DNA from: Alphaproteobacteria bacterium
GTDB taxonomy: Bacteria > Pseudomonadota > Alphaproteobacteria > Bin95
Assembly (NCBI GenBank): GCA_964291285.2
Contig: OZ219787.1
Location: 1,504,001 to 1,568,000 of the forward strand
Direction of reading: 5' to 3'
Length of the DNA stretch: 64,000 nucleotides
Made by a program: the position numbers and the translations under genes. Below, one piece after another: positions 10,356 to 37,563 of this stretch. Numbering within the stretch: position 1 is the stretch's first letter; every line of letters starts with the position of its first letter. Below the pieces are notes generated by a model. It saw only the letters and a program-made list of their open reading frames with translations, was not told the DNA's origin and did not search any database.

Positions 10356-10356
10356 G

Positions 10357-11862: not shown

Positions 11863-12653
11863 CCGACACCCTCATGAACCGCGCCCGCGCGCTGGGCCTG
11901 CACGGCCTCCTCGCCCATTGGGGCGAAGTCGCGGAGCGCGACTGGCTCGCCTCCCTGATCGCGTGGGAAGAAGATGAGAAGCGCGCCCGAAGCCTCAAAC
12001 GCCGCCTCGCCGACGCCCGCCTCGGACAGTTCAAGCCGCTCGCAGACTTCGACTGGGACTGGCCAAGGCGCTGCGACCGCATGGCCGTCGAGGACCTCAT
12101 GACCCTCGACTTCCTCAAGGAGGCCGCAAACCTCGTACTGGTCGGACCCAACGGCGTCGGAAAGTCCACCATCGCCGCCAATATCGCCCACCGCGCCGTC
12201 CTCGAAGGCCACATCGTGCGCTTCGCAACCGCCGCCAGCCTGCTCGGCGAACTCGCCGCCATCGACTCCGACACCCTGCTCCAGCGCAGGCTGCGCTTCT
12301 ACGCCCGACAGCACCTGCTGGTCATCGACGAAGTCGGATATCTCTCCTACTCCAACCGCCACGCCGACCTGCTGTTCAACATCGTCTCAAGCCGCAGCCA
12401 GCAGAACTCAACCATAATCACCACGAACCGCCCCTTCGCCGAGTGGAGCGAGGCCTTCCCAAACGCCGCCTGCCTGGTCGCCCTCGTCGACCGGCTCGTC
12501 CACAACGCCGAGATCGTCGCCATCGACGGCGACTCCTGGCGCCGCAAGGAAGCCGAGGAACGTCAGAAGCAGCGCAGCGCCGAACGCCGCCGCCGGCGCG
12601 GACCGAAAGCCGGGCAAAGCACTGGAAAGGCGAACCCGGTCCCGTCGCCATAG
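11859..12653 (+). CDS. istB: IS21 helper ATPase IstB
   Basis: GPNGVGKS Walker A, LLVIDEVGY Walker B, ITTN, VDRLVH, GDSWR. Confidence 0.95.
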   Translation: MTDTLMNRARALGLHGLLAHWGEVAERDWLASLIAWEEDEKRARSLKRRLADARLGQFKPLADFDWDWPRRCDRMAVEDLMTLDFLKEAANLVLVGPNGVGKSTIAANIAHRAVLEGHIVRFATAASLLGELAAIDSDTLLQRRLRFYARQHLLVIDEVGYLSYSNRHADLLFNIVSSRSQQNSTIITTNRPFAEWSEAFPNAACLVALVDRLVHNAEIVAIDGDSWRRKEAEERQKQRSAERRRRRGPKAGQSTGKANPVPSP

Positions 12654-12655
12654 CC

Positions 12656-13528
12656 ATGCATCCCTCCCGCCCCCGCGAGCGGCGGGTGCGGGCCGAGAGC
12701 CTGCGGGGCTATCCCCTCGAACCCGTCGCCCGAGCCCTCGGCTACCGCAGCGATCCCGACAATGCCGTGCGCTGGAGACGGCCAGGATCGGTCCTCTCCA
12801 TCAACCGCTTCATGTTCTACGACCATCTGCGCGCAGAGGAGGGAGCCGGGGCTATCGAACTGGCGGTCCATGCGCTCGGATGCACCCCGCCGGACGCCAT
12901 CGACTTCCTCGCCGAACTGTCCGACCTCTCAATGCCCCCAGGCGGCCGCCGGCAGGCGCCGGCCAAGGACCCCCGCTGGCCCAACCTCCGGCGATACCTC
13001 GTCGAGCGGCGCGGCCTCGCGGACGCGCTCGTCACCCTGTGCCGCGACCTCGGCCTGGTCCATGCCGACCCTCACGGCAACCCCGTGTTCGTCCGCCGAA
13101 ACGCCGCCGGCGAGGCTACCGGCATCGAAACCGTCACCGCTGACCGCAAAACGACCGCGGGCGGCGGCTTCTGGATGTCCTGGGAGACCGAATGGCCACA
13201 CGCCGTCATCCTGGCCGGCAACGCCCTCGACGCACTCTCCATCCTCTCCCTCCACCTCGGCCCGGTAAAACGCACCGAATGCGCCACCGTCTCCACCGGC
13301 GCCGTCGCCACCAAAGTCCCCAAATGGATCGAGGCATGGAACCCGCGCCTCATCTTCTGTGCATACGACGCCACCACAAACGGCGATCACGCCGCAAGGC
13401 GCCTCGCCCGCAACGACACCAGAATCGTCCGGCTGCGACCCGCACTCGACAACCGGGACTGGAACGACATGCTCATCCGCGACCGAGCCGGCGAACCAAT
13501 CGAAACCGATGACCAACAGATCAACTGA
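12656..13528 (+). CDS. DUF3991/Toprim-like passenger protein, probably degenerate
   Basis: GAIELAVH, YLVERRGL, GNALDALS, CAYD, DWND motifs; lies inside the IS21 IRs. Confidence 0.7.
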   Translation: MHPSRPRERRVRAESLRGYPLEPVARALGYRSDPDNAVRWRRPGSVLSINRFMFYDHLRAEEGAGAIELAVHALGCTPPDAIDFLAELSDLSMPPGGRRQAPAKDPRWPNLRRYLVERRGLADALVTLCRDLGLVHADPHGNPVFVRRNAAGEATGIETVTADRKTTAGGGFWMSWETEWPHAVILAGNALDALSILSLHLGPVKRTECATVSTGAVATKVPKWIEAWNPRLIFCAYDATTNGDHAARRLARNDTRIVRLRPALDNRDWNDMLIRDRAGEPIETDDQQIN

Positions 13529-14314
13529 AAAACCGCAACCGGCCGAAAAATGTCAGCGAATAGGCGCGCTCTGTAACCGTCGCTAACACGAGGCGCTGCC
13601 GCGACCGGATGGCCGGGAGCGAGTGTTCCCCGAGACCCTCACATCGGCAAGGCTTTACACCTTCTGGTGCGGTATCCGCGACGAGGCGGGGCTTCCGGGC
13701 CTTCGTATCCACGACTGCCGCCATACCTGGGCCTCGCAGGGCGTCATGAACGGCGTCGGGCTCACCACCGTCGGACGGCTGCTCGGACACCGCAAGCGGG
13801 AGACCACCGCGATCTACGCCCATCTCGACGATGGCGCGCTGCGCGACGCCGCCGCCCAGGCCGCGGCCGTCATCGCGCGAGCGATGGGGTACAAGGCGGA
13901 AGCGCCTCCGCTGCCGGACGAGGCGGCGCACGGCGATGCATCGGCCGACATACCTGCGCCGTCCAGGCCCGGTGCGTCGGCATCACCGGAGGGAGGGCGA
14001 TCCTCCCTCCGGGGCAGGACCGGGGATCCGGAGCGATCGGATGCAAGCATCCGCCGTAGACCGCAGGGTATCGGGATCTGAGTTTGCGGCGGGCATGGAG
14101 CTGATCGGGGACCCTCAGGCGGAGTCTTGCCGTGAAAATGGTTGGGAATCAGGCGCACGAAAACCCCTCCCCGCCAAAGCACTGCTCCCGAGGCGTCCGA
14201 TACTCGCCATCTGCGGCGCCCGTCTTGCGAACCGTGACCGGTAGGCAACCCCGTAAAAGCCCGAAGTCCCGCCCGCGCGGCCGGCACCTGTTTTCATGAT
14301 ACGGGGTGGCCGAC

Positions 14315-15992
14315 GGGCGTGAGTCTGACATGGCGATGCCGGGACCGGTCGGCTGATGTGGCTCATGCGGCGCGCCTGGCGGCGTAGCCAAGGCAGTTGT
14401 TGTCGTTGGCCGGGGTATCAGCATCGCTCATGAGGCCTGCCCATGCGCGGTCGAAGCGCCCGGATTTGATGAGGGCGCGTACGGTGAGGACGGCCTGCGC
14501 GCCGGCGATGCGCCATCGCATGCCGGAGCGCTTCATCCTCTGTGCGACGAGGGTTTTGTTTGCGGCCTCGACAACGCCGGAGCCGATGGTGATGCCGCGG
14601 TCGCTGAGGTTGCGGTATCGCATGCGCTTGCGGTGCTTGCGGAAGAAGGCGAGTTCGCGCTCGATGACGGTGCGCGCGGTGCGGTTGCCGCCTGCCTTGT
14701 CGCGCAGGTAGCGCAGCGCCCGGATCACCTTGGCGCTGCCGTGCGGGTCGTGTCGCAGGGTATGGCGGCAAGTCTCGAACCAGCGGGGATCGACGGCATG
14801 GTCGGAGGCTGTGCGGAGATGCTCGCAGGCGTGCCAGAAGTCGACGGCCACGGCCTCGGGCGAGAGGCTCTCCAGGAAGGTCCAGTTGTCGGGGGCGCCC
14901 CCCGCCTTCGCAGGGGCAGGCTCTGGCGACGGCGACTATGGCGATGTCGGGCCGGGCCTGGCGGATATGCGCGACCTCGCTTGCGAGTTGCGCCTTCAGC
15001 GTGGGCTTGCCGCTCTCCGGCATGCGGGCGAAGTAGAGGGTCTTGAGCCGTTCGCCTTGGGCGTCGTGGAAGGAGACCGTGCCGCAGGCGGCCTCGCGCC
15101 AGCAGGCCTCGTCGCGCCCGTCCTCGCCGGCACGCAGCGCCACCATGACGCCGTCGAGCGAGACCGAGGCGCTGACTGCCTCGGATGGGATGTCTTCCGT
15201 GTTGCGGATACTGTCCAGCGCCTGCGGCCCCAGGCCCTCCCAGCGCTCATGCATGGTCCGGGCGAGCCGCTGCAAGCTGCTCGCCGACGGCACCATGGCG
15301 CCCATCTCCGAGAAGAACTCTTCCGCTTCCCTGGCCGTGCCGTGGCCCATCATCATCAGCCCGAGCCGCGCGGCCGGGCGCGTCAGCCAGTCGTTCACCA
15401 GCCCCAGGCTCTCGTCCACCGGCACGAACGAGGGGCCGCCCACGCCGTGGCGATAACGCGCCCGCCTGTAGGTCACCGGGCCGAGCGCGCTCATGATCGT
15501 CTTCGGCGTCGCCGCCACACGGAACCGGCGTTGCCCGGCCCGCTCGACCCGCTCAGCCCCGTCGTCGAGGCGCTCGATCCACGACCCCAGAACCTCGCAG
15601 CCCAGCGCGTTCACCTTCGCCTGCACACGCCGCTCCATCTCTTCGAACGCCGCCGGGCAGGGCTCCACAGGAAGCGGCGCGCGGCACACAGTCGCCAATC
15701 CCGTCAACGCCTCCAGAACCCGAGCCGGCAAGCCCGACAGATCGATGGACGAAGACTGCGCAGGCTGCGACACTGGCATGGGACCGCTCCCGAGGTTGAT
15801 GTGGCAACAGCATCCTACCCTGCCTCTGGCGGGGCGGAGCGGTCCCGCACAACGGCCCCGCCATCGTGCGATCGTGACAAATGCCGGCCCTCCAACCCCC
15901 GATTGTCACCAAACCCCGTAATCGGGAACCCGAAACAAAGGCAAAATCTCAATATATCAACCGGTTACGATAGCCATACCGGACTTGCACCC
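14315..15992 (-). mobile_element. ISKra4/ISLre2-like (Mutator/IS256 superfamily) IS nested in the MITE
   Basis: IRs GGGCGTGAGTCTGACATGGC / rc GGGTGCAAGTCCGGTATGGC; 8-bp TSD TGGCCGAC at 14307-14314 and 15993-16000. Confidence 0.85.
14363..15779 (-). pseudogene. ISKra4/UPF0236-like transposase, frameshifted by a REP-like insert near 14900-14924
   Basis: SLDG, DFWHACEHL, IGSGVVEAANK, RMKRSGMRW motifs split between two frames at the insert. Confidence 0.85.
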
Positions 15993-16253
15993 TGGCCGAC
16001 CCGCCCGGCAATGGACGTTTGTGCGCCCGATCTCCATAATTTTCACGACAAATCACAGGCGGTCTACGCTAGAGGCTTACGTTGAAGCGCGCTCACAAGG
16101 GAACCTCCCACAAGCTCTCCGGGACCCTTGTTCTCCCCTAAGCGCCGGTTAACGCAGCCCGCATCTTCCGGGCCGTGGGGCGCGACAGGGGCCTTGGATA
16201 GCCGGGAAGGCCGGCGCGGCGCTCTACGGCGATTTGCGGCGGCGCGCCGGCGG

Positions 16254-17003
16254 TCAGGCGAATTTCAGGATTGCGACGGCCAGCGCGATCATGCCGAAGA
16301 TTGCAAGCAGCATCGCCCGGTCGCGCTGCGCCAGTTCCTTCGATAGCCGCTCAATATCGGTCTTGTATTCCGCCGCCTTCGATGCCGGCCGCCCGTTCTC
16401 CGATGACGAGGCGCCGTTCCGATGGCCGCCTCGCGGCTCGGCTTGCGCCGGCAGGGCGGTGAGCTTGTCGGCCCTTGCCCGGCTTGCGGCAGCGAGGATC
16501 GGTTCCGTGTGACGCGGCGGGGCGCTGGCAGTAGGATTCCAGGGCCTCGGCCTCCTGATCGGTTCCGTGTGACGCGGCGGGGCGGGTTCTTCTGCCGGCA
16601 GTGCTGCCCGGACGGGCGCAGCATGGACGCCGTCTGCATAGTCTTCACGGACGGACAGACGGTCCAGACGGTCGAGGATATCCAGCAAGCGGTTCCTGGC
16701 GACGGTATCTTCCATTCCATCAACCAGCGTTTCGACCCACGCCGCCAGTCTCCGAGCGTTGTGCGGGTGATATTGCTTGTTCCATTGAGAACATATATAC
16801 CATCGATCATTATAAAGGTACGGATAGTACCTTTTTTGGTACTTCCCGTCTCTATCTCTGCGGATCAGTGTATAGCTGAGCTTTAAGCCCAAGGGATTTT
16901 TAGTGGTCAACAAAAAATTGATTGTTTCGTTGTCCAGCGTTCCGGGAAAGTCCTCGAGAACGGTTCGCATAAAATATTGCACAATCTTCTGAAGCGTGTC
17001 CAT
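16254..17003 (-). CDS. hypothetical protein, apparently chimeric (AT-rich N-terminal domain, Pro/Arg linker, coiled coil plus C-terminal TM helix)
   Basis: GGAGG RBS before ATG 17003; C-terminus YKTDIERLSKELAQRDRAMLLAIFGMIALAVAILKFA. Confidence 0.55.
   Translation of the reverse strand: MDTLQKIVQYFMRTVLEDFPGTLDNETINFLLTTKNPLGLKLSYTLIRRDRDGKYQKRYYPYLYNDRWYICSQWNKQYHPHNARRLAAWVETLVDGMEDTVARNRLLDILDRLDRLSVREDYADGVHAAPVRAALPAEEPAPPRHTEPIRRPRPWNPTASAPPRHTEPILAAASRARADKLTALPAQAEPRGGHRNGASSSENGRPASKAAEYKTDIERLSKELAQRDRAMLLAIFGMIALAVAILKFA
16422..16640 (+). pseudogene. P4-type primase zinc-ribbon remnant
   Basis: LRRQGGELVGPCPACGSEDRF...GGFFCRQC; no downstream primase domain. Confidence 0.6.
16497..16584. 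repeat. Two perfect 28-bp direct repeats separated by a 32-bp spacer
   Basis: GATCGGTTCCGTGTGACGCGGCGGGGCG at 16497-16524 and 16557-16584. Confidence 0.9.
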
Positions 17004-17081
17004 AGCGTTCCTCCAAGGGGCTGGGCAGACGGGGATTTTGCACCCGAACATTTGCGTACCATCTCACTTCTCAAATTCACC

Positions 17082-18353
17082 TCAACAGATAGTGAATTTC
17101 TGAGGTAGCTGAGCAGATTCGCTTCCGAGAGCCAACCTATAGGAGTACAGAAGCTTCCGCCGGTCTACCTCGATACCGCTCATGTATGTCAGGAGGCGTC
17201 CGGCCAACGGTGCACCTTTCGCAATCATTCTTTTCCGCTCTGTATCCCAAATTATCCCCCTAAATGGCGGTAGCGCCATATCCAACGGAAAGTTATGTGC
17301 TCTCTCAAAAGCTGCATTTAAATCCTTCGACTTTGCTATCATTGCCATGGCATTGGCGAACGCTATTTGTCCAACCGGGCGAAAGAGTACATTTCGTACT
17401 TCAGGACTCCGCGCGATTTGGGCGATTCCACTATTGGGGCCCTCTTCTAGGTATCGCTGCAATTCTACATTTAGCTTCGCCATGCTACAAAAATATTGCA
17501 GAACTCGATTATAGTAATAGTCAATACGTGCCTCAGAAAGGCGTATGTTAATCGCTTCTTTGACCTCTACTCTCTCCTCCACGCTGGCCGCCAACGCATT
17601 GGAAAGAAGTCGCTTGATTACCGTATAGAGTGTCGCTATAGAAAACAGTGCATCAGAATCAGCAGGAATTGTTGACGTAAAACTCTTGATATCAACTTGA
17701 CCATGTGAAAACCACTTATGATCATCAACCAAGCGTCGCGCTAGAATGGCGGGCAGATCGATTTCATCGAGAATTATTATGTCCTTGAGGCCAACTGGCA
17801 CAGCGCGCTTATTTAAGTCAATAAACAATCTCCGGGTTCTTTGAATTCCTGTATCGGTATTCAAGTGAGGCACAAACAGGACAGTAAGTATATCACCCGA
17901 TGCGTTACCACCGTTCTCAAGTGCTCTTTTAATTCCAGAAACACGGTGCTGGCCATCGAGAGCAAACAGACGCTCGGTGCCTGTCAATTCCAGGAAGCCG
18001 ACACGCTCCTGCTCCGCGAGGTATCCGATATTCTCCATGTTAAAATCAGGTCGAGCTGTGATTCCGAAAGGATGCCAAACCGGTTCTCCCCCATATATAC
18101 CCACAACGATGGCATTGAAGAAGCGGGAGTCAGTTTCTTTCAGGTAGTTCGCGATTGCATCCTGCCGATTTCGTTTTCCAGAACCTGAGTCTTGCAATTG
18201 TCGCTGAATCAAGTTGCCTAGATTTCGGTTCTTATGCAGTAAATGGGCGAAACCAATGCGATCTTTGACTTCAGACAACGGCATTATTGCTGCATAGTAA
18301 ACCCAATCTCCAAATTGGCCTTGAAGGGCTGGCAATAGGATCGGTGTAGTCAT
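17082..18353 (-). CDS. DGQHR-domain (DndB-like) protein
   Basis: IQR, RFFNAIVVG, ALDGQHR, RRLFIDLNK motifs; ATGA-coupled to the upstream gene. Confidence 0.88.
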   Translation of the reverse strand: MTTPILLPALQGQFGDWVYYAAIMPLSEVKDRIGFAHLLHKNRNLGNLIQRQLQDSGSGKRNRQDAIANYLKETDSRFFNAIVVGIYGGEPVWHPFGITARPDFNMENIGYLAEQERVGFLELTGTERLFALDGQHRVSGIKRALENGGNASGDILTVLFVPHLNTDTGIQRTRRLFIDLNKRAVPVGLKDIIILDEIDLPAILARRLVDDHKWFSHGQVDIKSFTSTIPADSDALFSIATLYTVIKRLLSNALAASVEERVEVKEAINIRLSEARIDYYYNRVLQYFCSMAKLNVELQRYLEEGPNSGIAQIARSPEVRNVLFRPVGQIAFANAMAMIAKSKDLNAAFERAHNFPLDMALPPFRGIIWDTERKRMIAKGAPLAGRLLTYMSGIEVDRRKLLYSYRLALGSESAQLPQKFTIC

Positions 18354-18838
18354 TGCCACGCACTCCTGGCATCGCGAACCTCAGCGGAGAAGTCTCTACG
18401 GCTATAGGGTGGCATCATGGCATCATTGAAGTCTTTTTCAAGTTTAGAAATATCAAGGGTAGTTGTGTCAATCTCCGACCAGATAAGCATTAATTCGCCT
18501 TCAAACACATGTAAGAATCGTCGGACGGGAGTCCGGCCCGAACTCGAGTCCTTTTCAGAAAAATATTTCATGCAACGTCTTCGAAGCGAAACTCTGGAGA
18601 TTCCACCATATAGGGAAAGTCCGAGAGGCGGAAGACAAGTGAGATCATGTCCGACGTGAAAACAATATACGCCGGGTCTGTCGCTGATCTTGGATACTTC
18701 GTCAGGTTCGAAGGGTGTGAAATGCCAGTTAGGTTGGTATTGGGCACAAAACAGCCGCCAGCGATCCGGGAACAGTGCAATTCGGACGGTTCGCAAGTCG
18801 AGTTCCGCAAGCTGGTCGATAAATGGGTGCAGGGACAT
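18350..18838 (-). CDS. GIY-YIG-like endonuclease
   Basis: PGVY...LYGG.S..SLRRR...LEKDF....PPY pattern. Confidence 0.55.
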   Translation of the reverse strand: MSLHPFIDQLAELDLRTVRIALFPDRWRLFCAQYQPNWHFTPFEPDEVSKISDRPGVYCFHVGHDLTCLPPLGLSLYGGISRVSLRRRCMKYFSEKDSSSGRTPVRRFLHVFEGELMLIWSEIDTTTLDISKLEKDFNDAMMPPYSRRDFSAEVRDARSAWQ

Positions 18839-18930
18839 CAGGCTATCTCAGCTCTCAGCGGGAATTTGCGTTCTTTCATGTGCAATCCGCACACAGTCGC
18901 GAAAGCAGGAGACGGTAGGTGGCTGTTGGT

Positions 18931-20463
18931 TCATGGGGTCCAGCATAGGACTTTCTGGGTGCGGGCCTCTGAGCGTATCCGGCAAAGCGCTTCGCCCACT
19001 TGCAGGCCGGTCAGGGAGACGGTGCTGCCGAAGATGCGCTTCGTCGGACCCGGTCTGGCTTGGGTATTGAAGGCTAGGGTCATGCCCATATTGTCCAAGT
19101 AGCCATCCTCGGCACCATCGAAGTCGTCAGGGGATTGCGATATCAACATGAGGGACCCACCCTTCGATCGACTCATTCGGACGAGATTGCCAAGAGCCGG
19201 AAGCTTTGTCGACAGGATTACATGGGCTTCGTCGAGCATGGTCAGATGGCGGAGCTCGCGCGCACCCTGGTTGTCGGTGGGTGCGTCTGGTTGAGAGTTG
19301 ATCCAACGGTCCAAGGCATCAAGGGTCAAGTTGATGATAAGTCGCCGCATTTCCGGGGATCCGTCTTGTGGAAGCTGGATGATCCAGCTTCTTGCAAAGA
19401 ACGCGGCTGGGGAAAGGTCGGGCTTGAAGAGGGCGAACTGGGTCAGTTCGTTCAACGTCGCCGTCAACTCATCGGCTTTCCGCCCACGATCCTCGTACTC
19501 CGATTCCACTGCCATCGCGACGTCCGGCAGATTTGCTGGGGCATCCGCCGAACTGTGACGAAGGACGGATGCGACTGCTTCCCTCAGCGCTTCTGACTGG
19601 ACGCCGCTGGGCTTGCGTACCTTCACCGCGGCGATCGAGTCCCGAATGCGGGCGGCGGCGGTTTTGATGGATGTGTCATCACTGGACGAAACATGCAGCA
19701 CGTCCAATGGGATTGCCATCTCCGGGGGGATGATTGACGTGGCTCCGAAGCTCTGCGTGAAGCTGTCGATGAGGTCGCCCTTGAAGTCGAATGCCAGGAG
19801 CGGAAGCTCGCAGTGTCGGCGCAATGTGCGCAGCATGTGGACGGCGGTCCTGGTTTTGCCGGAACCGACACCGCCCATGATGGCTATGTGGGGGCTGCCG
19901 CCTGCCCCGTTCACCGAAAACGTGACATGCTCGTTCGACCTGAGATCACGAGCGATTTCGCCCACGGGCAATCGGACTTCTCCAGCGTAGGTGGACGCCG
20001 CGGCATCTGGCGGGGCATCGTCGCGCCGATCACCGTCTCCAGCAAAGCTCGCGAGTTCAGCGAGGCGCGCGACAAAGCCCCCCATCTGCTGGTCGCCGTC
20101 GCTCCAGTCCTGCCTGAGAAGCAACGCACCCCTGTGCCAATGGCGTGTGACCAATTCTTGCAGGACCCTCTTGGTCATTTCAGTGTCGCGGCTGTGCTGC
20201 GTGATGAGAGCCAACCATGCGGCAGCGTGTGCGTCCTCTCCGAAGAGTTGCATGCCGCGCAACGGGATCGCCATGTCCTCGCTGTCTTCATCCTTCAATT
20301 CAGGTGGCTGCTCAGGGAGTGACAGCGATCTACCCACGGCCAGCCGGGCGGCGACATATCGATGCTTCCAACCCAACTTCGCGGTGAGGTCGGCGCAAAT
20401 GTTGTCCGCGGTTCGGGTCGTCCGAAATGTCGATGTCGCAAGATCCAGAATGCCGATAACCAT
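18931..20463 (-). CDS. DndE-like domain fused to a HerA/FtsK (DUF87)-like ATPase
   Basis: N-terminus ARLAVGRSL...RHWHRGALLL resembles DndE; C-terminal PHIAIMGGVGSGKT Walker A, FDFKGD, MLDEAH Walker B, SRSKG, LISQS. Confidence 0.75.
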   Translation of the reverse strand: MVIGILDLATSTFRTTRTADNICADLTAKLGWKHRYVAARLAVGRSLSLPEQPPELKDEDSEDMAIPLRGMQLFGEDAHAAAWLALITQHSRDTEMTKRVLQELVTRHWHRGALLLRQDWSDGDQQMGGFVARLAELASFAGDGDRRDDAPPDAAASTYAGEVRLPVGEIARDLRSNEHVTFSVNGAGGSPHIAIMGGVGSGKTRTAVHMLRTLRRHCELPLLAFDFKGDLIDSFTQSFGATSIIPPEMAIPLDVLHVSSSDDTSIKTAAARIRDSIAAVKVRKPSGVQSEALREAVASVLRHSSADAPANLPDVAMAVESEYEDRGRKADELTATLNELTQFALFKPDLSPAAFFARSWIIQLPQDGSPEMRRLIINLTLDALDRWINSQPDAPTDNQGARELRHLTMLDEAHVILSTKLPALGNLVRMSRSKGGSLMLISQSPDDFDGAEDGYLDNMGMTLAFNTQARPGPTKRIFGSTVSLTGLQVGEALCRIRSEARTQKVLCWTP

Positions 20464-20465
20464 CT

Positions 20466-22541
20466 CTATATGTGCTCCGGATCGAGCCTGTGGACGCTCG
20501 TTACGGCTATGCCCTTGTCGGTGCGGACCTTCAATTCGAAGGCAGCCACCAAACGCTCTCTGATCGCATCGAGTTTGTCGTCGATGATCTCTTCGTCAGT
20601 GGACAGGAGAATTACCTGGCCCGGTCGGTCCGTGAACGTGTTGAGGACGCCGATCCTTTGCGCCCGGCTCAGCCGCGCTAAGGGTGTGTCCACAACGAAC
20701 GGAAATATTCGGCCGCTGACTCTTGTAATCGCCGTAATGAGAGCCTGAGTAAACACTTGGCTGGCGCCCGCGGACTTGTCGACCTCGTGCAGATCCTCAT
20801 CGTCTCCGGTCAGCATTCTCACCTCGCAGTCAGGGGTGATTTCGATCCGGTTCACCCGATCCGACAGGTGAGCCATCGCCTTCCAGGCCCGAGTCATTTC
20901 CTTGGCGACCTCGCCAATCTCGCTCGGTAACGCGTCTTTGAGGACGTTCTGGATGAGGTCTGCGTATCGATCAGCGTAGTCAGCCCGCCGTAATGCGGGC
21001 GCGCTGGCACCTTGGCGTGACATGTAGCGTCCGAGTTCCGCTCGCTTCTGGGCAAGTTCCGCTTCCTTGCCCTGGATGGCACGATCAGCCTCATTTCTCT
21101 GGGACTTGTAGTGCCCCATCTGTTCGGAGAGCTCCCTCAATCGCATCGTAAGCCGCTCGACTTCCGGCGCCGTCGACTCGAGCTCCTGCCATTCACGCTT
21201 CACGGAATCGGCGCGTTCGACGGCGATACGGAATCGTTCCTCCTGGCCGGCGACTTCTCCTTCGGTGTGATTGTCCAGCGACAGCAGGCGTTCGATCGCC
21301 CGGTCGCGCATCGTGCCATTGAGAGACGGATGGCGATAGTTCTCGGGACAGCCCTCCGGAGCCGGATGCCACAGGGCGTCCCAAGCCTCTTTGCCTGCTT
21401 CGACAACGGCGAGGCGATGGCCTTCATCGAGTGGAGGGTCGAGCGCCGAGACACGACGCCCAAGTTCGAGGGCGAAGCGGTCGAGATTCTGAGCGCCTTC
21501 GTTGCGACCTGCCTCCCATCGCTCACGTTTTGCTTCCGCCTCCAGCCGTTCGCGTGTGCGCTTCCGGAGTTCGGGACCCGCAACCGCCAGCGCGACATCT
21601 TCCTGGATGAGGGCCAGCAGTGCGTCCATGGCGCGCTGCGCTTCGTCCCGATGCCGTTGTTCGGCCTGCATGAGCTTTCCGACCATTGCGGTCGTGCCTT
21701 CGCCACGGCCGCCGATGGCTTGGGTCAGCTCGTCGATCTCGGCTGTAAGTCCGGGCAGAACCGTCGCCGCCTCGTTGAGGCGATCCTGCTCCTTGACTAT
21801 GGCTTCCGAAATCTCGGCGACATCGGCCTCCACCTTCATGACTGTGCTGTCGGTCGGTGCGGCCGCAGAGGTGCGTCGTTGTTGCGCATAGGTCTCGAGT
21901 GAAGACTTCAGGTTCCGCAGGATGGGGAGACCGAGCAGGCCCTCGATCCCGAGACGGACTTGTTCGCCCATTTCGCGATTTGCATAGCGCTGCACCTGTT
22001 CGCCGTCGAAGAGAAAGAACTCGGCGAGACTGGGGTGCAGGAAGCGTTGCGCTATCCAGTCACGGAACCATCCGTCACGATTCTCGATTCCGGATGGGGG
22101 TATGACGGGTTCCCTGGCCAAGCCGTGAAAAATGGTGAGGTCATCGTCGCTCGGCTTATGTTGACGGTTCTGGCGAAAATGCCAGATCCGCGTGAGCTCG
22201 ATCGGATCTCCGCTGTCGTCCTCGACCTCAATCGACACGGAGCATTTTGCCGGCCCGGTCTCTGTGGCCCGATAGTGAAGGGTGTTGCTGAGAAACTGGC
22301 TGTAGCTGGCCTTGAAGCGGTCGACGGCGTCGCCATGGGCGACTGCCCGGGCGCGGGGCACGAGGACCAGCCCGTCGCGTCCGAACAATCCCAGCGTTAT
22401 GGCCTCAAAGAAAGAAGTCTTCCCGTACTCGTTGGGCGCCCTGATAAGTATGACATTCCGGTGGCCATGCGGGGTTGGAAAGTCAAAGCGAGCATGCCTG
22501 TAGGAGCGCCAATTGATCAATTCGACCGAACGGAGGTGCAT
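20466..22541 (-). CDS. dndD: DNA sulfur modification protein DndD (SMC-like ABC ATPase)
   Basis: NWRSY, PNEYGKTS, FFLFDGEQ, coiled coil, SAG signature, VVDTPLARL; adjacent to dndC. Confidence 0.85.
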   Translation of the reverse strand: MHLRSVELINWRSYRHARFDFPTPHGHRNVILIRAPNEYGKTSFFEAITLGLFGRDGLVLVPRARAVAHGDAVDRFKASYSQFLSNTLHYRATETGPAKCSVSIEVEDDSGDPIELTRIWHFRQNRQHKPSDDDLTIFHGLAREPVIPPSGIENRDGWFRDWIAQRFLHPSLAEFFLFDGEQVQRYANREMGEQVRLGIEGLLGLPILRNLKSSLETYAQQRRTSAAAPTDSTVMKVEADVAEISEAIVKEQDRLNEAATVLPGLTAEIDELTQAIGGRGEGTTAMVGKLMQAEQRHRDEAQRAMDALLALIQEDVALAVAGPELRKRTRERLEAEAKRERWEAGRNEGAQNLDRFALELGRRVSALDPPLDEGHRLAVVEAGKEAWDALWHPAPEGCPENYRHPSLNGTMRDRAIERLLSLDNHTEGEVAGQEERFRIAVERADSVKREWQELESTAPEVERLTMRLRELSEQMGHYKSQRNEADRAIQGKEAELAQKRAELGRYMSRQGASAPALRRADYADRYADLIQNVLKDALPSEIGEVAKEMTRAWKAMAHLSDRVNRIEITPDCEVRMLTGDDEDLHEVDKSAGASQVFTQALITAITRVSGRIFPFVVDTPLARLSRAQRIGVLNTFTDRPGQVILLSTDEEIIDDKLDAIRERLVAAFELKVRTDKGIAVTSVHRLDPEHI

Positions 22542-22756
22542 TAATCTTCCGTTTCGGGCTCGATGTTGTCAAAAATCTCGTTAAACGCTTCCGTTATCCC
22601 GCGTTTTCGAAGCTTGCCCTGCTGATCCATCTCTATAGCGATCAACTGTTCGAGCACACCTAGATCAAGGTCTGCTTCCCTGCACTTCGAACGGACGAGC
22701 TTTCTGCCTGCTTCACTACGAAGGAGTACGACATCGCCATGGCCGCTCGGCATCAC
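22541..22756 (-). CDS. small protein associated with Dnd modification
   Basis: 71 aa, coupled to both dndC and dndD; LEQLIAIE...RKRGI resembles the C-terminal segment of canonical DndC. Confidence 0.7.
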   Translation of the reverse strand: MMPSGHGDVVLLRSEAGRKLVRSKCREADLDLGVLEQLIAIEMDQQGKLRKRGITEAFNEIFDNIEPETED

Positions 22757-24000
22757 GCGCCTCCGGTGGCCACGGTGCGCTGCGCTTCCGCATTTCGTTC
22801 TGCACTGACAATCACATCCTCCACCCAGAGCTCCCGTATGCGTTCGATTTCGGATCGGGCAATCAAGACCATTTCCGATTGTGCTTGGAGCGCTAGCAAT
22901 CGATCAAGAATTTCGCGTCTGGTTGCCATGTTGAACGGACCGGGCACGAATACACCCTTCTTGGTGATCGTGACGCGCCCATTGCGGCGCCGGGCAAGAC
23001 GGCGCGAGGGGTCATTGCGAATCTCCACGAGCCAGTCGCGAAACTTGAGCAGCGGCATGAATTGATCGAAACCGGAATCGACGAAGCCCGCCAGGCTCTT
23101 GTCCTTCTCGACGACCGTGCACGTCCAGCACCCGAAACGAGAAGACCTCGTGCCACACGAAGGCACGTCGGCCGTGGAAGTCACGACTGGGCATTCGCCG
23201 CCGCCCGCGTCCCGATAGAGCTGGATCAATCGATCGTGGCTGCCGCCCCAGGGAGGTTTGTTCTCTGCGAGAAATTCCCAAACATCGTCGGTGTCGAGTT
23301 CGAGGATAGGTCGAAACACCAAACAGCCCGGAAGATCGTTGTGCCGGTTCAGTCGCGAACCGTTATCGTAGCGTGCCGCCACGCCCGCCCGCGTGGCGCT
23401 CTCTTTTCTGCGCACGCCAAGGAGAAGGATCACTTCGCCCGAGGTGTTCGCCTGCTTCCGAATGTAGTTGCTGGTCGGCTGGATCTTCATTCGATCGGTG
23501 CACCAGCGGAAGTTGCGGTTGGGTGAGGCATAGCCGCGGCCGATCAGATTGACCCAGAATGTCTGATTCGGTTCGGGCGTGGTCGTGGCAACAACCACGG
23601 GCAAGTCGAATGCCCGTGCTGCCTTCTCGATCTCCGCGAGGCCGATCCTGACATGTTCCATAACCAACGGACTCTCGACGAGCGTGTCGTTCGCGACGAC
23701 ATGGACGGCCCGCGTTCGTTCGCTGCGTGGCAAAGAGACCAAGTGCTCGACAACGAGGTGCGCGACGAGGGTACTGTCCTTGCCGCCGGAGAATCCGACT
23801 ATCCATGGCTTGCCATGAGGCTCAGCGTATTCCTCCTGAATCTGTTGTCGGATGAAGGCAAGGGTGTCGTCGGAGGCGGATTGGGGAGGGTACGTCGGGG
23901 ACCGCGTGTCCATGTTGCTGGACGACGCCGGAGGCTCTGATGCGACGATATGCAACATCCTGTCGAGGCGGTTCTGAGCCGGGAGGGTATCCACACTCAT
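22753..24000 (-). CDS. dndC: DNA phosphorothioation sulfurtransferase DndC (PAPS reductase family)
   Basis: GFSGGKDST, NDTLVE, FRWCTDRMKI, LGVR..ES, GECP, SRFGCWTCTVV. Confidence 0.93.
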   Translation of the reverse strand: MSVDTLPAQNRLDRMLHIVASEPPASSSNMDTRSPTYPPQSASDDTLAFIRQQIQEEYAEPHGKPWIVGFSGGKDSTLVAHLVVEHLVSLPRSERTRAVHVVANDTLVESPLVMEHVRIGLAEIEKAARAFDLPVVVATTTPEPNQTFWVNLIGRGYASPNRNFRWCTDRMKIQPTSNYIRKQANTSGEVILLLGVRRKESATRAGVAARYDNGSRLNRHNDLPGCLVFRPILELDTDDVWEFLAENKPPWGGSHDRLIQLYRDAGGGECPVVTSTADVPSCGTRSSRFGCWTCTVVEKDKSLAGFVDSGFDQFMPLLKFRDWLVEIRNDPSRRLARRRNGRVTITKKGVFVPGPFNMATRREILDRLLALQAQSEMVLIARSEIERIRELWVEDVIVSAERNAEAQRTVATGGA

Positions 24001-24344
24001 GCGCGTGCCGTCGGCGACAGGACAGGGCCCCGAAGCTGACCGTCCCGCCCCTGAAGTGTGTACGGAGTGTCAGCGCTTGATCGTCTCGTGGCGGCCACGA
24101 TCATTTGTTCGGCCAAGTCCAGGCTGTCGCGATGGCAACCGTCAGCCGCCCGGATCTTGTCATCGGCGGCTTCGAGGTGGATTTCCTTGGTTGCAGCACG
24201 CCCTTCGAAGACAGGCGCGCTTCGATTGCGAGAGAACCCGTATGCCCGGTCGAGGATTCGCGCACGTTCAACTTTGACCTCTCTGCATGTGAAGCCGCGT
24301 TTCACATACGTGAGTTCGGCGAGCAGTTTACACGACGCCCTCAT
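23997..24344 (-). CDS. hypothetical ORF upstream of dndC
   Basis: ATGA overlap with the dndC start; no recognisable motif. Confidence 0.3.
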   Translation of the reverse strand: MRASCKLLAELTYVKRGFTCREVKVERARILDRAYGFSRNRSAPVFEGRAATKEIHLEAADDKIRAADGCHRDSLDLAEQMIVAATRRSSADTPYTLQGRDGQLRGPVLSPTARA

Positions 24345-24651
24345 CTAGAAGCAACCTCAACTGCCGGATTTAGGATCAACAGGCATCTCGACCATATGGT
24401 GAGGCGTGTGCGCTGTTTGGAAGTTCTTTCTGAGCAAGGCATTGCGGAGGGTCTGGATTTTTCTTACCCCGTCAGGATGGCTGATTTCCGGGGTTTTTGC
24501 GGTTTGGAGGGAAAGGTTTTGTGGATTTCCACCCCATGGCCGTGCGCGGGCTGGTTTTCGGGCGCGTCGCGTTGAGGCGCGGGACTGAGTAGAAGGTGTC
24601 GCCATCGGGCCTGCGGCCCTTGTTCCATCCACCGGCGCTGGTTGGGAGAAC

Positions 24652-25989
24652 ATGATGGCGACAGCGGAGAAGTTAGCCTTTTCGTGGTGGTCTGTGGAGG
24701 GCCTTGCGGACCTTGAGCGTCTGCGTGTGGTGCTCGACACGCTTCCCGACGAGAAGGTTGTGGCTGCGCTTGAGGCGGGTCGCGGTCGCGGGCGGAACGA
24801 CTATCCGGTACGGGCGATGTGGCGTGCGTTGATCGCGGGGATCGTGTTCCAGCATGCCTCGATGCAGTCGCTGCTGCGTGAGCTGGGCCGCAACCCGGCA
24901 TTGCTTGAGATTTGCGGGTTCGAGGCGCTGCCCTTGCAGGGTGCGCCGGTGGTGGCGCTTTGCGCGGGGCGGGTGGTGAGGTATCCGGCGCCGTTGCGCT
25001 CGACGGTGCCGGGCGCCTGGAACTTCTCGCGGTTCCTGGGGCGCGTGGTGCGCCTTGAGGACGAGCGCGGCCTTGTGTCGGGGATGATCGGGCGTCTGCG
25101 CGCCTCGCTGTTCGAGGAGTTGCCGGACTTCGGTCGCCATCTCGGGTATGACGGCAAGGCGGTGGCGAGCCACTCGACGGGCCGGGTTGCCGGGGCCAGG
25201 GGGCAGACCTCGGACCCCGATGCGGACTGGGGCAGGCACGAGACGGGCGGGGTGAACGCGAAGACCGGCGCGGTGTGGAAGAAGGTGAAGTCGTGGTTCG
25301 GCTACGGGCTGCACCTGATCGCCGACACGGACCACGAGGTTCCTGTGGCCTTCGAGGTGACGCGGGCGTCGGCATCGGAACCCGGGGTGCTGTCCGGGAT
25401 GCTGGAGGAGTTGTTCGCCGAGGCGCCGGAGATGGCCGGGCGCTGCGCCGATTTCAGCGCCGACCGCGGTCTCGACAACGCCCGCCTGAAGGCGCGGCTG
25501 TGGGACAGGTGGCATATCCGCCCGCTGATCGACACGCGCCTGATGTGGCGGGTCGAGAAGAAGGAGCCGGGCCATGACCCGGCCCGGCCGATCACGCGAC
25601 CGCTGTTCCCCGGGCGCGCCGACGTCATCGTTCATGACGAACGCGGCCGGGTGTCCTGCGTGTGCCCGCAGACCGGCGAGGTCCGCGCCATGGCCTTCCA
25701 GGGGTTCGAGGTCGGGCGCGGCGTCTGCGGCACGCTCAAATACCGCTGCCCCGCAGCCGCCTTCGGCTTCGAGTGCAAGGGACGCCGGGCCTGCCATCGG
25801 GCGGGTGGGGTGAAGTCCGGCGAATACGGCCGCATCCTGCGCGTCGACCTCGACAGCCATGACCGGCGTATCTTCACGCCCACGCCCTGGGGCAGCCCGT
25901 CATGGCGGCGCGGATACAACCGGCGCACCGCCATGGAGCGGATCAACGCCCGCCTCGACCGCAGCTTCAACTTCGAGACCCATTACATC
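24652..25989 (+). pseudogene. IS1182/IS5-like DDE transposase (DUF772-type N-terminus), 3' end truncated by IS66
   Basis: GRNDYP, YDGK, DPDADWG, FGYGLHL, SADRGLD, YNRRTAMERINARL; the frame runs into the IS66 end at 25990. Confidence 0.8.
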
Positions 25990-26018
25990 GTAAGCGGTGC
26001 GGGGGAGGCACCCGGCTT

Positions 26019-27638
26019 TCAGCTTGACGGCGTCTGGAAGTTCCAGGGCAGGAGTTCGTCGATGCGGCTGTTGGGATGACCTGCCGCGATCTTTTCGAGC
26101 GTGATCTTGAGCCAGGCGTAGGGCTCGACACCGTTCATCTTCGCCGTCTCGATGAGCGAGCCGATGCGGCCCCAGGAGCGCGCGCCCTCGTCGTGGCCGG
26201 CGAACAACGCATTTTTCGCGGTGAGCTTGATCGGCCGGATCCGATTTTCGACGAAGTTGCTGTCCATCTCGACGCGCCCGTCGTGCAGGAAGACCAGCAG
26301 CCCGTCCCACTGGTTGGCGATGTAGGTCAACTTCTCGCCGAGGCGGGACTTGGGCGAGACGCGCGAGCGCTGCTCGTCGAGCCACACCCCGAAGGCGTTC
26401 ACCAGCGGCGCGGACCCGGTCCAGCGGACGAACTGGCGCGTCGCCGGCTCCTCACCCCGGATCCTGTCCTCGATCCTGTAGAGCTGCGCGATGCGCTCCA
26501 GTCCGGCCTTCGCGATCGGCGAGCGGCTGCTGTCGAACACCGTCTCAAGGCCGCGCCTGGCGTGTGCCCAACAGGCACAGAGCGTCAGCGCCCCGCCCGG
26601 GCGATCCGCCCGGCCGAGCCGGTTGTGGCCGGCATAGCCGTCGACCTGCACCGATCCCTGGAAGCCCTCGAGGAGCTTCTCGCCATGCTTGCCGCTGCGC
26701 CCGGGCGCATACTCATACGCCACCCCCGGCGGGTCCGCCCCGGACCAGGCCCGCTGGTCGCGCACCATGGTCCACAGATAGCCGGTTTTGGTCTTGCCCC
26801 GGCCCGGGTCGAGAACCCGAACCGTGGTTTCGTCCAGACCCAGGGTGCTCGACGTCTTCAGCGCCGTCTTCAGGCGCTCATACACGGGGCGCAAGTGGAA
26901 CGCCGCCTTGCCGACCCAGCCGGCCAGCGTCGAGCGGTCCAGTTGCAGCCCCGAGCGGGCATAGATCCGGGCCTGGCGGTACAGCGGAAGGTGGTCGGCA
27001 TATTTGGAGATCAGGACATGGGCGATGGCGCCTTCGGTCGGCAGCCCACCCTCGATCAGCCGCGCCGGCGCCGGCGCCTGGGTAACGCCTTCCTCGCACT
27101 TGCGGCAGGCGTATTTCGGGCGCACCGTGACGATCACCCGCAACTGCGCCGGCACGATGTCGAGCCTCTCGGCGCGGTCCTCGCCGATCTTCACCATCTC
27201 CCCGCAGCCGCAGGGGCACAGCGTGCTCTCCGGCTCGATCACCTGCTCGATCCGTTCCAGGTGCTCCGGCAAATGGCCGAGATTGCGCTCCGGGCGGGGC
27301 TTCCTCGGTGCGCGCGGCGGCGACGGATTGTCGGCCGCGGCCTGTGCTTCCCCCTCCGCAGACGCGCCCTCCAGCTCCTCGAACGCCAGCTGGCGCTCGT
27401 CCGCCGACAGCTTCTCCGACCTCTTGCCATACACAAGGCGGACCAGTTCGAGGTTCAGATGCTCCAGACGGCGGATGCGCGCCGACAGCGCCTCATTCTC
27501 ACCCGCGAGGCAGACCTTCTCTTCCGTCAGCGTCCTGTTCTCGGTGCGAAGCGTCTCCAGCGCCGCAAGCGCCTGCCTCGCAGCAGACGCCTGTTCGGGC
27601 GTCAGCGTGTCGAGGTCCATCTCCGCAAGCGCTGCCAT
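26019..27638 (-). CDS. tnpC: IS66 transposase TnpC
   Basis: GKRSEK, CPCGC, KYADHLPLYRQ, DET, DGYAG, CWAHARR, ELLPWN. Confidence 0.95.
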   Translation of the reverse strand: MAALAEMDLDTLTPEQASAARQALAALETLRTENRTLTEEKVCLAGENEALSARIRRLEHLNLELVRLVYGKRSEKLSADERQLAFEELEGASAEGEAQAAADNPSPPRAPRKPRPERNLGHLPEHLERIEQVIEPESTLCPCGCGEMVKIGEDRAERLDIVPAQLRVIVTVRPKYACRKCEEGVTQAPAPARLIEGGLPTEGAIAHVLISKYADHLPLYRQARIYARSGLQLDRSTLAGWVGKAAFHLRPVYERLKTALKTSSTLGLDETTVRVLDPGRGKTKTGYLWTMVRDQRAWSGADPPGVAYEYAPGRSGKHGEKLLEGFQGSVQVDGYAGHNRLGRADRPGGALTLCACWAHARRGLETVFDSSRSPIAKAGLERIAQLYRIEDRIRGEEPATRQFVRWTGSAPLVNAFGVWLDEQRSRVSPKSRLGEKLTYIANQWDGLLVFLHDGRVEMDSNFVENRIRPIKLTAKNALFAGHDEGARSWGRIGSLIETAKMNGVEPYAWLKITLEKIAAGHPNSRIDELLPWNFQTPSS

Positions 27639-27689
27639 GGCCCGCTCGATAGCACAGTGTCGGGGAGCCGGGGGCCCCGATCCGCTGAG

Positions 27690-28043
27690 TCATTCCGCCT
27701 CAGCCGGGGCCCGGACGGACAGCGCCCGAACACGACGCCAGTCCAGCCCGCAGAACAGCGCCTCGAACTGTGCATGGTTCAGCGTCATGACACCGTCGCG
27801 GATCGCAGGCCACACGAAGCCCTGATCCTCCAGACGCTTGTAGACCATCACCAACCCGGTCCCGTCATGGAAGACGAGCTTCAGCCTGTCGCTTCGTTTT
27901 GCCCTGAAGAGGAAGACCGTTCCCGTGAACGGGTCCTTGCGCAACACGCTCTTCACATGCGCAACAAGGCCGTCGTGCTGCTTCCTGAAGTCCACGGGCT
28001 TCGTCGCAACGACGATCCGCACACGGTTCGATGGGAAGATCAT
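27690..28043 (-). CDS. tnpB: IS66 accessory protein TnpB
   Basis: VDFRK..DGL, YKRLE..GFVWP. Confidence 0.93.
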   Translation of the reverse strand: MIFPSNRVRIVVATKPVDFRKQHDGLVAHVKSVLRKDPFTGTVFLFRAKRSDRLKLVFHDGTGLVMVYKRLEDQGFVWPAIRDGVMTLNHAQFEALFCGLDWRRVRALSVRAPAEAE

Positions 28044-28438
28044 GACGCCGCGTTCAGCGCAGAAACGATCTCCGCCAACCGTCCCGCCGGCACGGCCGCG
28101 TCCAGACGGACCGTAACCCTGTCCATAACGACTTCCAGACGCGCGCCGCTCGCCTCACCGACACCGCTACCCTCCGCCCGGACAACCAGCGGCGCAAACG
28201 CCACTTCCGCCGCAGGCAAAACAAGCCGACCTTCCCGCGCCAGGCGACGCCAGCCCGTCAACTGGTTCGCATGGACGCCATGTCTGCGCGCAACCTCGCG
28301 AACCGTCGCACCCGGCTCCAGCGTCTCCGCCACAATCCGCGCCTTCAAATCATCCGGCCAGCGACGACAACCGCCTCCAACCGGAAGCACTTCTACGCTC
28401 CTGAGTGTCTCAACTGAGCCCAACATTGTGAAACTCAC
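28040..28438 (-). CDS. tnpA: IS66 TnpA (HTH)
   Basis: RRWPDDLKARIVAET..VARRHG..ANQL..WR. Confidence 0.9.
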   Translation of the reverse strand: MSFTMLGSVETLRSVEVLPVGGGCRRWPDDLKARIVAETLEPGATVREVARRHGVHANQLTGWRRLAREGRLVLPAAEVAFAPLVVRAEGSGVGEASGARLEVVMDRVTVRLDAAVPAGRLAEIVSALNAAS

Positions 28439-30480: not shown

Positions 30481-30589
30481 GACGACCTTCGAATCCAGAA
30501 GCATCCGGCATGCAAGGGCGCCCGCATGCGACCGGGTGAATCAGCATCGCTGCAGCGACAGAAGCCATCCAATCCGATATCACTGCTTC

Positions 30590-30877: not shown

Positions 30878-31128
30878 GGTAATTTTGTACAAAGTCGAGC
30901 TAAGAGCACGGTTAGAGCGCTTGTCGCTGGGACAGACCCTCCCAAATGTCAACTCTCAGATTGTCGAAAGCCTCGAAGTTCCCTTGCCACCCCTTGCTTT
31001 GCAACTTGAGTTCGCCGAACGAGTCGAGGGTGTGCACCGGCTCGCCAATGCGCAAACACAAGCCGCCAATCAACTGAGCTCGTTGTTCGCGTCCCTTCAA
31101 CAGCGTGCCTTCCGAGGAGAGCTGTAGC

Positions 31129-31977: not shown

Positions 31978-31978
31978 G

Positions 31979-36342: not shown

Positions 36343-36412
36343 ACTCGACTAATTTGCCAACCGGTGCTACTCAAAAGCGTCCATGAGCCCAGCGATGAGG
36401 AACGATAATATC

Positions 36413-37554: not shown

Positions 37555-37563
37555 TGCGGTAAC

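Follow-up and report, generated by a model that had tools for sequence, protein, structure and literature searches.

A compact operon related to the Dnd systems of DNA phosphorothioate (PT) modification lies in the genome of an alphaproteobacterium of the GTDB lineage Bin95 (GCA_964291285.2), and is examined here as a candidate PT writer accompanied by a putative effector. The window, meaning the whole stretch of 64,000 nt that was analysed and to which all coordinates refer unless another contig or locus is named, is located on contig C3 (OZ219787.1) of this 5-contig, 6.1-Mb genome. Its GC content is 0.68-0.75, dropping to 0.50-0.66 over approximately 16-44 kb, and positions 17082-24000 of the minus strand hold six co-oriented open reading frames (ORFs) with zero internal stops. 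The first four genes are termed the core and the last two the pair; in gene order, the features are as follows.

22753-24000, minus strand: DndC, a sulfurtransferase of the PP-loop/PAPS-reductase type, 415 aa (TIGR03183)
22541-22756, minus strand: Sp-DndD-like small protein, 71 aa (weak PF20306 match; putative tail of PADLOC DndC)
20466-22541, minus strand: DndD-related coiled-coil ABC ATPase, 691 aa (TIGR03185; PADLOC PbeC, PDLC02736)
18931-20463, minus strand: DndE::HerA/FtsK fusion, 510 aa (PF08870 with TrwB_AAD_bind/DUF87/HerA)
18839-18930, minus strand: junction between core and pair, 92 nt
18350-18838, minus strand: predicted nuclease of GIY-YIG fold, 162 aa (AlphaFold2 model, Foldseek, VIA-align)
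17082-18359, minus strand: DGQHR-domain ParB/Srx-like protein, 425 aa (TIGR03187)

Successive ORFs overlap by 4 and then 1 nt, are next separated by 2 and then 92 nt, and overlap again by 10 nt at the last junction, which translationally couples the nuclease and DGQHR ORFs. When compared to two relatives, the ratio of nonsynonymous to synonymous substitution rates (dN/dS) is 0.06-0.22 in all genes with unsaturated dS, with values of 0.11-0.21 for DndC and 0.11-0.22 for the small protein. The entire six-gene block has been recovered in one alignment with the related loci L001 and L003 at 80-83% nucleotide identity, and the aligned block of locus L002 begins at position 17356, within the DGQHR gene. 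The six-gene arrangement is not a product of chance, and the genes are under purifying selection and intact, the latter as the original prediction had proposed for this locus. The six gene identities assigned there were likewise correct; among them, the GIY-YIG call, which had been made by eye, has been upheld by fold (Z scores of 9.0-9.4). A promoter and terminator scan of positions 16000-25000 was judged uninformative: no minus-strand terminator-like site was detected between the genes, and the promoter-like matches fell inside the last two, AT-richer genes. The ORFs flanking the operon (16254-17051 and 23997-24344) were considered as further parts of the system and rejected, as neither has a family match and no conserved gene family stood out upstream of the operon in related loci; the former ORF also has no counterpart in those loci.

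The first gene encodes a DndC equivalog, with a score of 371.5 bits against TIGR03183 (cut-off 290.4), although the match covers only positions 3-364 of the 447 in the profile. PADLOC family PDLC02662 was matched with 404 bits over positions 7-374 of 481, and the translation shows an SGGKDS PP-loop as well as a Cys-rich CX..CX8CX2C stretch. The protein ends about 100 positions short of the C-terminus of the longer DndC profiles. For the small protein that follows, the likely true start is an ATG one codon downstream of the annotated ORF start. It matches the Pfam family PF20306 (Sp-DndD) with an E value of 2e-4 and 21.9 bits, against a cut-off of 27.2, and 9 of 33 aligned members of its family match PF20306 at E<=0.01 (best E 5.1e-7). 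When the same family was compared to the PADLOC collection, 18 of the 33 members matched the DndC family PDLC02661 and 15 matched PDLC02662 (best E 2.6e-5), with no match to any PADLOC family other than DndC. The protein from the window aligns at positions 406-455 of these two profiles, which are 468 and 481 positions long. Because these positions are matched while the DndC of the window stops near position 374 of 481, the small protein appears to be the counterpart of the C-terminal tail found in longer DndC proteins, as judged from the two PADLOC profiles only. An ORF occurs between DndC and DndD in 61 loci, and 58 of these ORFs were judged by eye to be the small protein.

The DndD-related ATPase is labelled PbeC by PADLOC (PDLC02736, 689.6 bits, positions 1-682 of 685). 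Its assignment to the PbeC/CxC type has nonetheless been rejected, since neither a CxC nor a CxxC motif occurs in the coiled-coil region of any of 61 aligned DndD-like homologues, the window protein included. A conserved motif, LWxPxPxxC..Y.H, is found instead at the coiled coil's apex (residues ~390-405), which is the position of the zinc hook in the CxC relatives, and may represent another kind of hook. In the alignment, the apex cysteine is present in 45 of the 61 homologues and the histidine in every row displayed.

The fourth protein combines a DndE domain and a DNA motor in one polypeptide. Family PF08870 (DndE) was matched at residues 13-119, with 32.7 bits against a cut-off of 25, and a P-loop region of the HerA/FtsK/TrwB type follows at approximately residues 190-470 (TrwB_AAD_bind, DUF87, HerA/HerA_C). 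The protein also matches the C-terminal positions 1347-1648 of the 1715 in PADLOC DndH (E 3e-11), and its best solved relative is DptH (7es4, E 1.6e-4). Its Walker A (GGVGSGKT), Walker B (LDEAH) and R...SQS sensor/finger regions are invariant in 23 sequences, and the fusion family comprises 776 relatives of about 510 aa. Profiles from Pfam, NCBIfam and PADLOC revealed no nuclease or other effector domain in the four core proteins.

A DndE-HerA/FtsK fusion lying beside a DndD-related ATPase has already been described as HerA/FtsK clade-3 (Rakesh, Aravind and Krishnan, Nucleic Acids Research (NAR) 2024, PMC10853773), where Krishnan et al., NAR 2020 is cited for the DndE fusion and where the fusion ATPase and the DndH/DptH motor domains are placed in one clade. 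The window shares with that subtype the union of DndE and HerA/FtsK in one polypeptide, the adjoining DndD-related ATPase 2 nt upstream and DndC, along with a small protein that may be of the Sp-DndD type. Taking these likenesses into account, the core would most probably write PT as a member of this catalogued subtype, and the distinct new Dnd subtype advanced in the original prediction does not hold for the core: a description exists in the available part of PMC10853773, and the Sp-DndD family PF20306 exists as well. That part of the clade-3 description mentions neither the GIY-YIG/DGQHR pair nor a relation of the small protein to the tail of DndC. It does report URI/GIY-YIG nucleases among genes bordering Dnd neighbourhoods, and considers whether DndB could act as a co-effector. 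In a search of the literature by title and abstract, no experiment on the fusion subtype was found, the supplementary tables of PMC10853773 being outside that search; in the same search, no description of the pair as a PT effector was found, though those tables may list it or the gene order seen here.

The departure from the canonical dnd(A)BCDE plus dndFGH arrangement, which had been pointed out before, is well founded. When compared to DndABCDE with DndFGH, as in Salmonella enterica Cerro 87 and Streptomyces lividans, the cluster in the window shares a DndC equivalog, a coiled-coil ABC ATPase, a DndE domain and a DGQHR-family protein. It differs in having no DndA, no true upstream DndB and a DndD under the cut-off, as well as a DndE fused to a motor and a DndC tail encoded by a separate gene, with no DndH found in the genome. 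Likewise, PbeC as the best PADLOC label and a small protein with a DndE-type partner are shared with the PbeABCD/CxC systems, from which the window is set apart by the lack of a CxC/CxxC hook, the lack of an HKD-helicase (PbeA) in the operon and the presence of DndC.

A scan of one genome per species has yielded 122 stretches encoding a fusion relative, from which 78 distinct loci were kept. Many of these originate from metagenome-assembled genomes associated with sponges or corals, and cultured Xanthomonas, Stenotrophomonas, Rhodobacter and Paracoccus are also represented. Upstream neighbours were counted in the 69 loci whose fusion gene is preceded by at least 3.6 kb of sequence, and downstream neighbours in the 65 loci where at least 2 kb follow it. 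A DndD-like gene adjoins the fusion gene in 60 of the 69 loci, and DndC and DndD occur in order in 55, the rest being mostly interrupted or partial. Downstream, a GIY-YIG gene was detected in 9 of the 65 loci and a DGQHR-like gene in 16. In the loci bearing the nuclease, the profile search placed a DGQHR gene next to it in 10 of 11 cases, and tblastn revealed a fragment of one at the contig end in L030. The boundary between the two parts is also visible in the DNA itself: in the pair-less loci L005, L006 and L009, homology to the window at the nucleotide level breaks off at 18917-18935, around the fusion stop codon at 18931; GC at third codon positions is 0.70 in the core and drops to 0.45-0.49 in the pair; and nucleotide identity to L002 is 85-91% in the core and 64-65% in the pair. 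The operon consists of two modules and not of one evolved unit, with the pair as an optional add-on, and the single unit put forward in the original prediction has thus given way to a gene-order census in which 49 of the 65 downstream flanks are without a DGQHR-like gene.

In 7 of the 16 loci with a DGQHR-like gene (L042, L051, L062, L070, L074, L076 and L077; for example, L051:10561-12272), the DndB-like protein is directly preceded by a protein of 165-201 aa with about four membrane segments by eye. The DndB-like proteins of these loci are 19-22% identical to the DGQHR protein of the window. The possibility that the partners of ~180 aa are diverged nucleases has been rejected, as the nuclease profile gave no match and the sequences look like membrane proteins. 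The membrane-protein partner looks like an effector swap, which fits a sensor with exchangeable effectors.

Methyltransferase genes have also been noticed beside the core. A convergent gene for a class-I S-adenosylmethionine-dependent methyltransferase of 353-386 aa (Methyltransf_25/11/23) is located just downstream of the core in five loci (L026, L027, L028, L071 and L074; for example, L027:10547-11611, minus strand). Larger relatives occur in L041, L046 and L069, and the protein does not belong to a recognised DNA methylase family.

The 162-aa protein of the pair has no above-threshold family in Pfam, NCBIfam or PADLOC, with none found at E<=0.01 in the first searches, and its score against PF01541 (14.8 bits) is under the gathering score of 22.6. 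An AlphaFold2 model built on 28 sequences reached a mean predicted local distance difference test score (pLDDT) of 81.5. The first 14 Foldseek matches listed for this model are all GIY-YIG enzymes, with probabilities of 0.95-1.0. Re-alignment with VIA-align gave Z 9.4 to T4 EndoII (2wsh), in which 106 residues were superposed at a root-mean-square deviation (rmsd) of 2.6. For the UvrC N-domain (1yd2/1yd3), Z was 9.0, with 87/90 residues at an rmsd of 2.0; GIY-YIG enzymes fill all of the top 13 rows, and unrelated rows have Z <=3.8. By its modelled fold, the protein is a GIY-YIG nuclease, with predicted activity. In 88 sequences of 22-64% identity, residues Y58, Y77, G79, R88 and Y92 are invariant and E134 is at least 90% conserved. 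Judging by spacing, we take Y58, Y77, R88, Y92 and E134 to be equivalent to Y19, Y29, R39, Y43 and E76 of UvrC. The protein also carries a conserved N-terminal extension of about 50 residues. A member of the same family in locus L091 passes the PF01541 threshold (26.8 bits), and a search of the family profile against 1.84 billion representatives returned 620 clusters at E<=1e-3, the best 150 of the 620 spanning 96-237 aa.

The second protein of the pair scores 108.3 bits against TIGR03187 (cut-off 58.85), and its DGQHR motif at residues 135-139 is invariant among homologues. It falls within the DndB Pfam family with 81.7 bits, but reaches only 56.8 bits against the DndB equivalog profile TIGR03233, for which the cut-off is 328. 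On these profile scores it is a paralogue of DndB and not an equivalog, which corrects the earlier view of a DndB shifted to the operon end; it belongs instead to a DGQHR subfamily travelling with its own GIY-YIG partner. Foldseek with the full model was weak (best E 0.055), and the usable scores came from VIA re-alignment, in which the N-domain (residues 11-190) gave Z 7.5 to ParB, 7.2 to Noc and 6.3 to sulfiredoxin, with KorB within 6-7.5. This domain invites comparison with DndI and SspE, which, according to the available part of PMC11662687, unite an HNH nuclease in one protein with a ParB-like DGQQR NTPase that is stimulated by PT DNA. When compared to SspABCD-SspE and IscS-DndBCDE-DndI, the window has in common a ParB/Srx-fold DGQ(H/Q)R domain coupled to a nuclease at the end of a PT writer operon. 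Nonetheless, the nuclease of the window is a GIY-YIG one and a separate polypeptide, whereas SspE and DndI have a fused HNH/DUF1524 domain, and the DGQHR protein belongs to the DndB family rather than to DUF262/GmrSD_N, with a C-terminal domain without a known fold.

The surroundings of the pair elsewhere were also considered. Two samples of 401 genomes were screened for the nuclease family and held 3 and 2 carriers beyond the genome of the window, and a search of plasmids for the DGQHR protein returned 5 records, of which two were examined (L094 and L095). The small genes of these two plasmids are members of the nuclease family (E 4.5e-60 and 2.4e-44, respectively), and are labelled 'hypothetical protein' in both records. 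In all seven independently found contexts, which comprise five other genomes and two plasmid types, the nuclease gene adjoins a DGQHR gene and genes of a PT system lie less than 10 kb away. Three contexts are SspABCD-like (L092, L097 and L095, the latter being plasmid pROLI83 of Roseobacter litoralis), with genes for a cysteine desulfurase, a DUF4007 protein, a large ATPase and a PAPS reductase. The pair comes immediately after an SspD-like gene on the same strand in L095 and L097, and is convergent in L092. Two others are Dnd/Pbe-like (L090 and L096), and the remaining two are DndH-like (L091 and L094, a Rhizobium pTi plasmid), with a protein of 1771-1809 aa bearing a C-terminal FtsK domain. 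Because the association was found in 7 of 7 contexts and once more in the same genome, a functional link between the pair and PT genes is indicated, rather than a chance neighbourhood.

In L094 (Rhizobium sp. K1/93 pTiK1_93, 8495-19225), the pair is followed on the same strand by hypothetical proteins of 589 and 513 aa and a 1809-aa 'DNA translocase FtsK', a run of three genes that looks like a DndFGH-like trio, and SIR2 and PIN genes are located upstream.

These contexts bear on the proposal that the four core genes form a complete defence by themselves, with a DndH-like motor that blocks or pumps unmodified DNA, and that the pair is an unrelated neighbour on the island. The nearest solved and profile relatives of the fusion ATPase are indeed the DndH/DptH motors, with which it shares one clade in the available part of PMC10853773; the core is also found without the pair in most loci, and the pair differs from it in base composition and divergence history. 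However, such a proposal leaves the core without any detected nuclease or effector domain and the recurrent company of the pair with PT genes without a cause, and no minus-strand terminator-like site was seen in the 92-nt gap that would separate the two parts. It is thus regarded as improbable.

The main rival explanation assigns the pair to the modification process itself. In this case, the DGQHR protein would be a DndB-type regulator of the level or timing of PT modification, acting through DNA binding or ATP use, while the GIY-YIG protein would introduce nicks that aid or tune modification or repair. Its place in the DndB Pfam family agrees with this, as do the reports of DndB as an ATP-dependent negative regulator (PMC10853773 and PMC4507180, in the parts available), and a dispensable regulator would be expected to be missing from most core loci, as the pair is. 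Yet the DndB equivalog score is far under its cut-off, and the DGQHR gene is the last of the operon and translationally coupled to a nuclease whose catalytic residues are intact. A regulator is also difficult to reconcile with a pair that occurs next to a DndH-like gene in an examined stretch where no writer was detected, as well as after SspD-like genes, and the membrane-protein partner in seven loci would be hard to fit with a modification helper. Taken together, these observations make the regulatory role unlikely, although less so than a self-sufficient core.

The reading preferred here is that of two portable modules brought together on an acquired island, namely a PT writer of the catalogued fusion subtype and a PT-linked reader and effector made of two polypeptides and analogous to SspE/DndI; this reading has been given a probability of roughly 0.58. 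From the comparisons above, we infer that the core writes PT, that the proteins of the pair bind each other, that they sense PT and that the system restricts phage. In such a mechanism, the two ribbon-helix-helix domains of DndE would read the target sequence, while the hexameric-type motor fused to it would, together with the coiled-coil ABC ATPase, move or clamp the complex on DNA. DndC would insert the sulfur, supplied by a cysteine desulfurase encoded elsewhere in the genome, and the small protein, as a detached DndC tail, would probably bridge DndC to its partners. By analogy with SspE/DndI, the ParB-like NTPase would sense PT-marked self DNA and keep the nuclease in check, and invading DNA without the mark would be nicked or cut. 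The combination of modification and effector functions in one operon, which the original prediction had proposed, is reasonable but unproven.

Several observations weigh against this reading. In the core, the DndD-like protein matches TIGR03185 over its full length with 198.1 bits, below the cut-off of 245.85, with AAA_23 matched too; the double ribbon-helix-helix DndE part of the fusion scores 21.4 bits against TIGR03184, for which the cut-off is 71.85; and the small protein gave no match to the C-terminus of TIGR03183. Regarding the DGQHR protein, the Z scores of its N-domain to SspE (5.2) and DndI (3.6) are modest, the helical C-terminal half (190-425) gave no clear fold match in searches with the full-protein model, and no fused GIY-YIG-DGQHR protein was found in a profile search of longer proteins, which is weak evidence. 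In the available parts of the published accounts, canonical DndB, which among named proteins is the closest relative of the DGQHR protein, is described as a negative regulator (PMC10853773; ATP-dependent, also PMC4507180) and not as a sensor of self DNA. With respect to gene neighbourhoods, L091 and L094 have no PT writer gene from the search panel within the examined stretch, and no other gene family recurs downstream of the core in more than seven loci. Because those 49 flanks lack a DGQHR-like gene, the core may be only an epigenetic writer, and the pair would not necessarily depend on it.

The question of what reads the sulfur mark is a general one, since many PT writers are encoded without DndFGH: according to the available part of PMC10853773, 4287 taxa have modification components and 1798 have DndFGH. 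In this setting the locus offers a compact, intact case of the writer subtype in which DndE is tethered to a DNA motor, and the pair is a candidate reader of the mark in genomes without DndFGH. If the pair senses PT, it would constitute a fourth kind of PT-dependent effector beside SspE/DndI, DndFGH/SspFGH and Pbe, and nuclease and membrane effectors would be exchangeable on a ParB-like sensor. A bolder and more tentative proposal, for which the odds are somewhat unfavourable, is that the pair and its sibling, composed of the membrane protein and its DndB-like neighbour, are a portable PT-reading effector cassette serving at least three writers (the Dnd HerA/FtsK fusion, SspABCD and Dnd/Pbe). 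Were the cassette proposal true, the six-gene operon would be a self-contained PT-based restriction-modification (R-M) system, the 'hypothetical protein' family would be a new PT-dependent nuclease arm, and the whole class of DGQHR proteins, with canonical DndB among them, may serve as PT sensors and not as simple repressors. Otherwise, the locus would add one more ordinary member to a Dnd subtype that is already catalogued.

The remainder of the genome has provided information on sulfur supply and on the DndFGH module. The absence of dndA noted originally is confirmed within the window, but a DndA-like cysteine desulfurase is encoded at C1:902942-904030, beside a second dndC; it is one of four matches to Aminotran_5 (PF00266, the DndA family) in the genome, located on contigs C1, C2 and C4. 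As for the reported lack of DndFGH, it stands for DndH, given that the only match to PADLOC PDLC02684 across the 6.1-Mb genome is the ATPase domain of the window fusion itself; DndF and DndG were not searched. The second dndC is part of another PT-like locus on contig C1 at about 897-905 kb (L081: 7364-14639), which encodes the DndA-like desulfurase, a DndC (331 bits) and a 670-aa protein with GmrSD_N and GmrSD_C domains that resembles SspE/DndI, with no DndD or DndE recognised. In this locus a convergent pair of divergent sequence is also present, with a 114-aa GIY-YIG protein (PF01541, 23.1 bits against 22.6) encoded 15 nt before a DGQHR gene.

Two further members of these families occur on contig C1. 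A third DGQHR paralogue (C1:653774-655009; L082: 6765-8075), 34% identical to that of the window, is encoded between IS5- and IS701-family transposases, with no GIY-YIG partner detected adjacent to it. At about 784 kb (L093, 8620-9438), an ORF that covers no more than the first two thirds of the profile for the nuclease family adjoins a TrwC relaxase and a DDE transposase. No DGQHR gene accompanies it, and it may be a remnant.

Across 60 relatives of the host (16 from its genus, 20 from its family and 24 from the class), the fusion gene was not detected. This absence, together with the base composition and the flanking integrases and insertion sequence (IS) elements, indicates that the island of the operon was acquired horizontally. 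It could also be argued that the operon is carried along passively, with no activity or role in the host, on an island that is decaying and IS-ridden, considering that the flanks are rich in transposases and integrases, that a type I R-M locus nearby is disrupted and that the fusion gene was detected in none of the 60 relatives. No RNA sequencing run containing the sequence was listed, which counts neither for nor against this view. Six open frames, conserved catalytic motifs and the dN/dS values already given speak against such a fate, which is considered very improbable.

The type I R-M locus (24652-35392) has been broken up by mobile elements, in agreement with the decay recorded in the original prediction: an IS66 insertion and an hsdS fragment are present and no hsdM was found, although hsdR is still full length. 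Its features are the following.

24652-26079: DUF772/DDE transposase
26019-27638, minus strand: IS66 transposase
approximately 28.5-29.1 kb: hsdS-like fragment
29098-30504, minus strand: DDE_5 transposase
31913-35392: hsdR, full length (PADLOC REase_I, 570 bits)

A group of genes with very low third-position GC (0.42-0.56) is located at 36383-38238 and 39779-40672, beside a Mutator-family transposase; one of its genes encodes a RimK-like ATP-grasp protein (36613-37554), and three of its ORFs are without a Pfam or PADLOC match. No tRNA genes that could serve as island borders were found in the window. Parts typical of an integrative or conjugative element occupy 166-15779 and 40728-43093, including the end of a Strawberry-notch-like helicase, a protein with DUF7146 and Toprim domains (2619-5036), a DUF4326 protein and a YAcAr/SLOG protein. 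Full tyrosine recombinases are encoded at 7419-8687, 40728-41903 and 41900-43093, with a fragment at 13623-14081, and an IS21 pair is present at 10213-12653.

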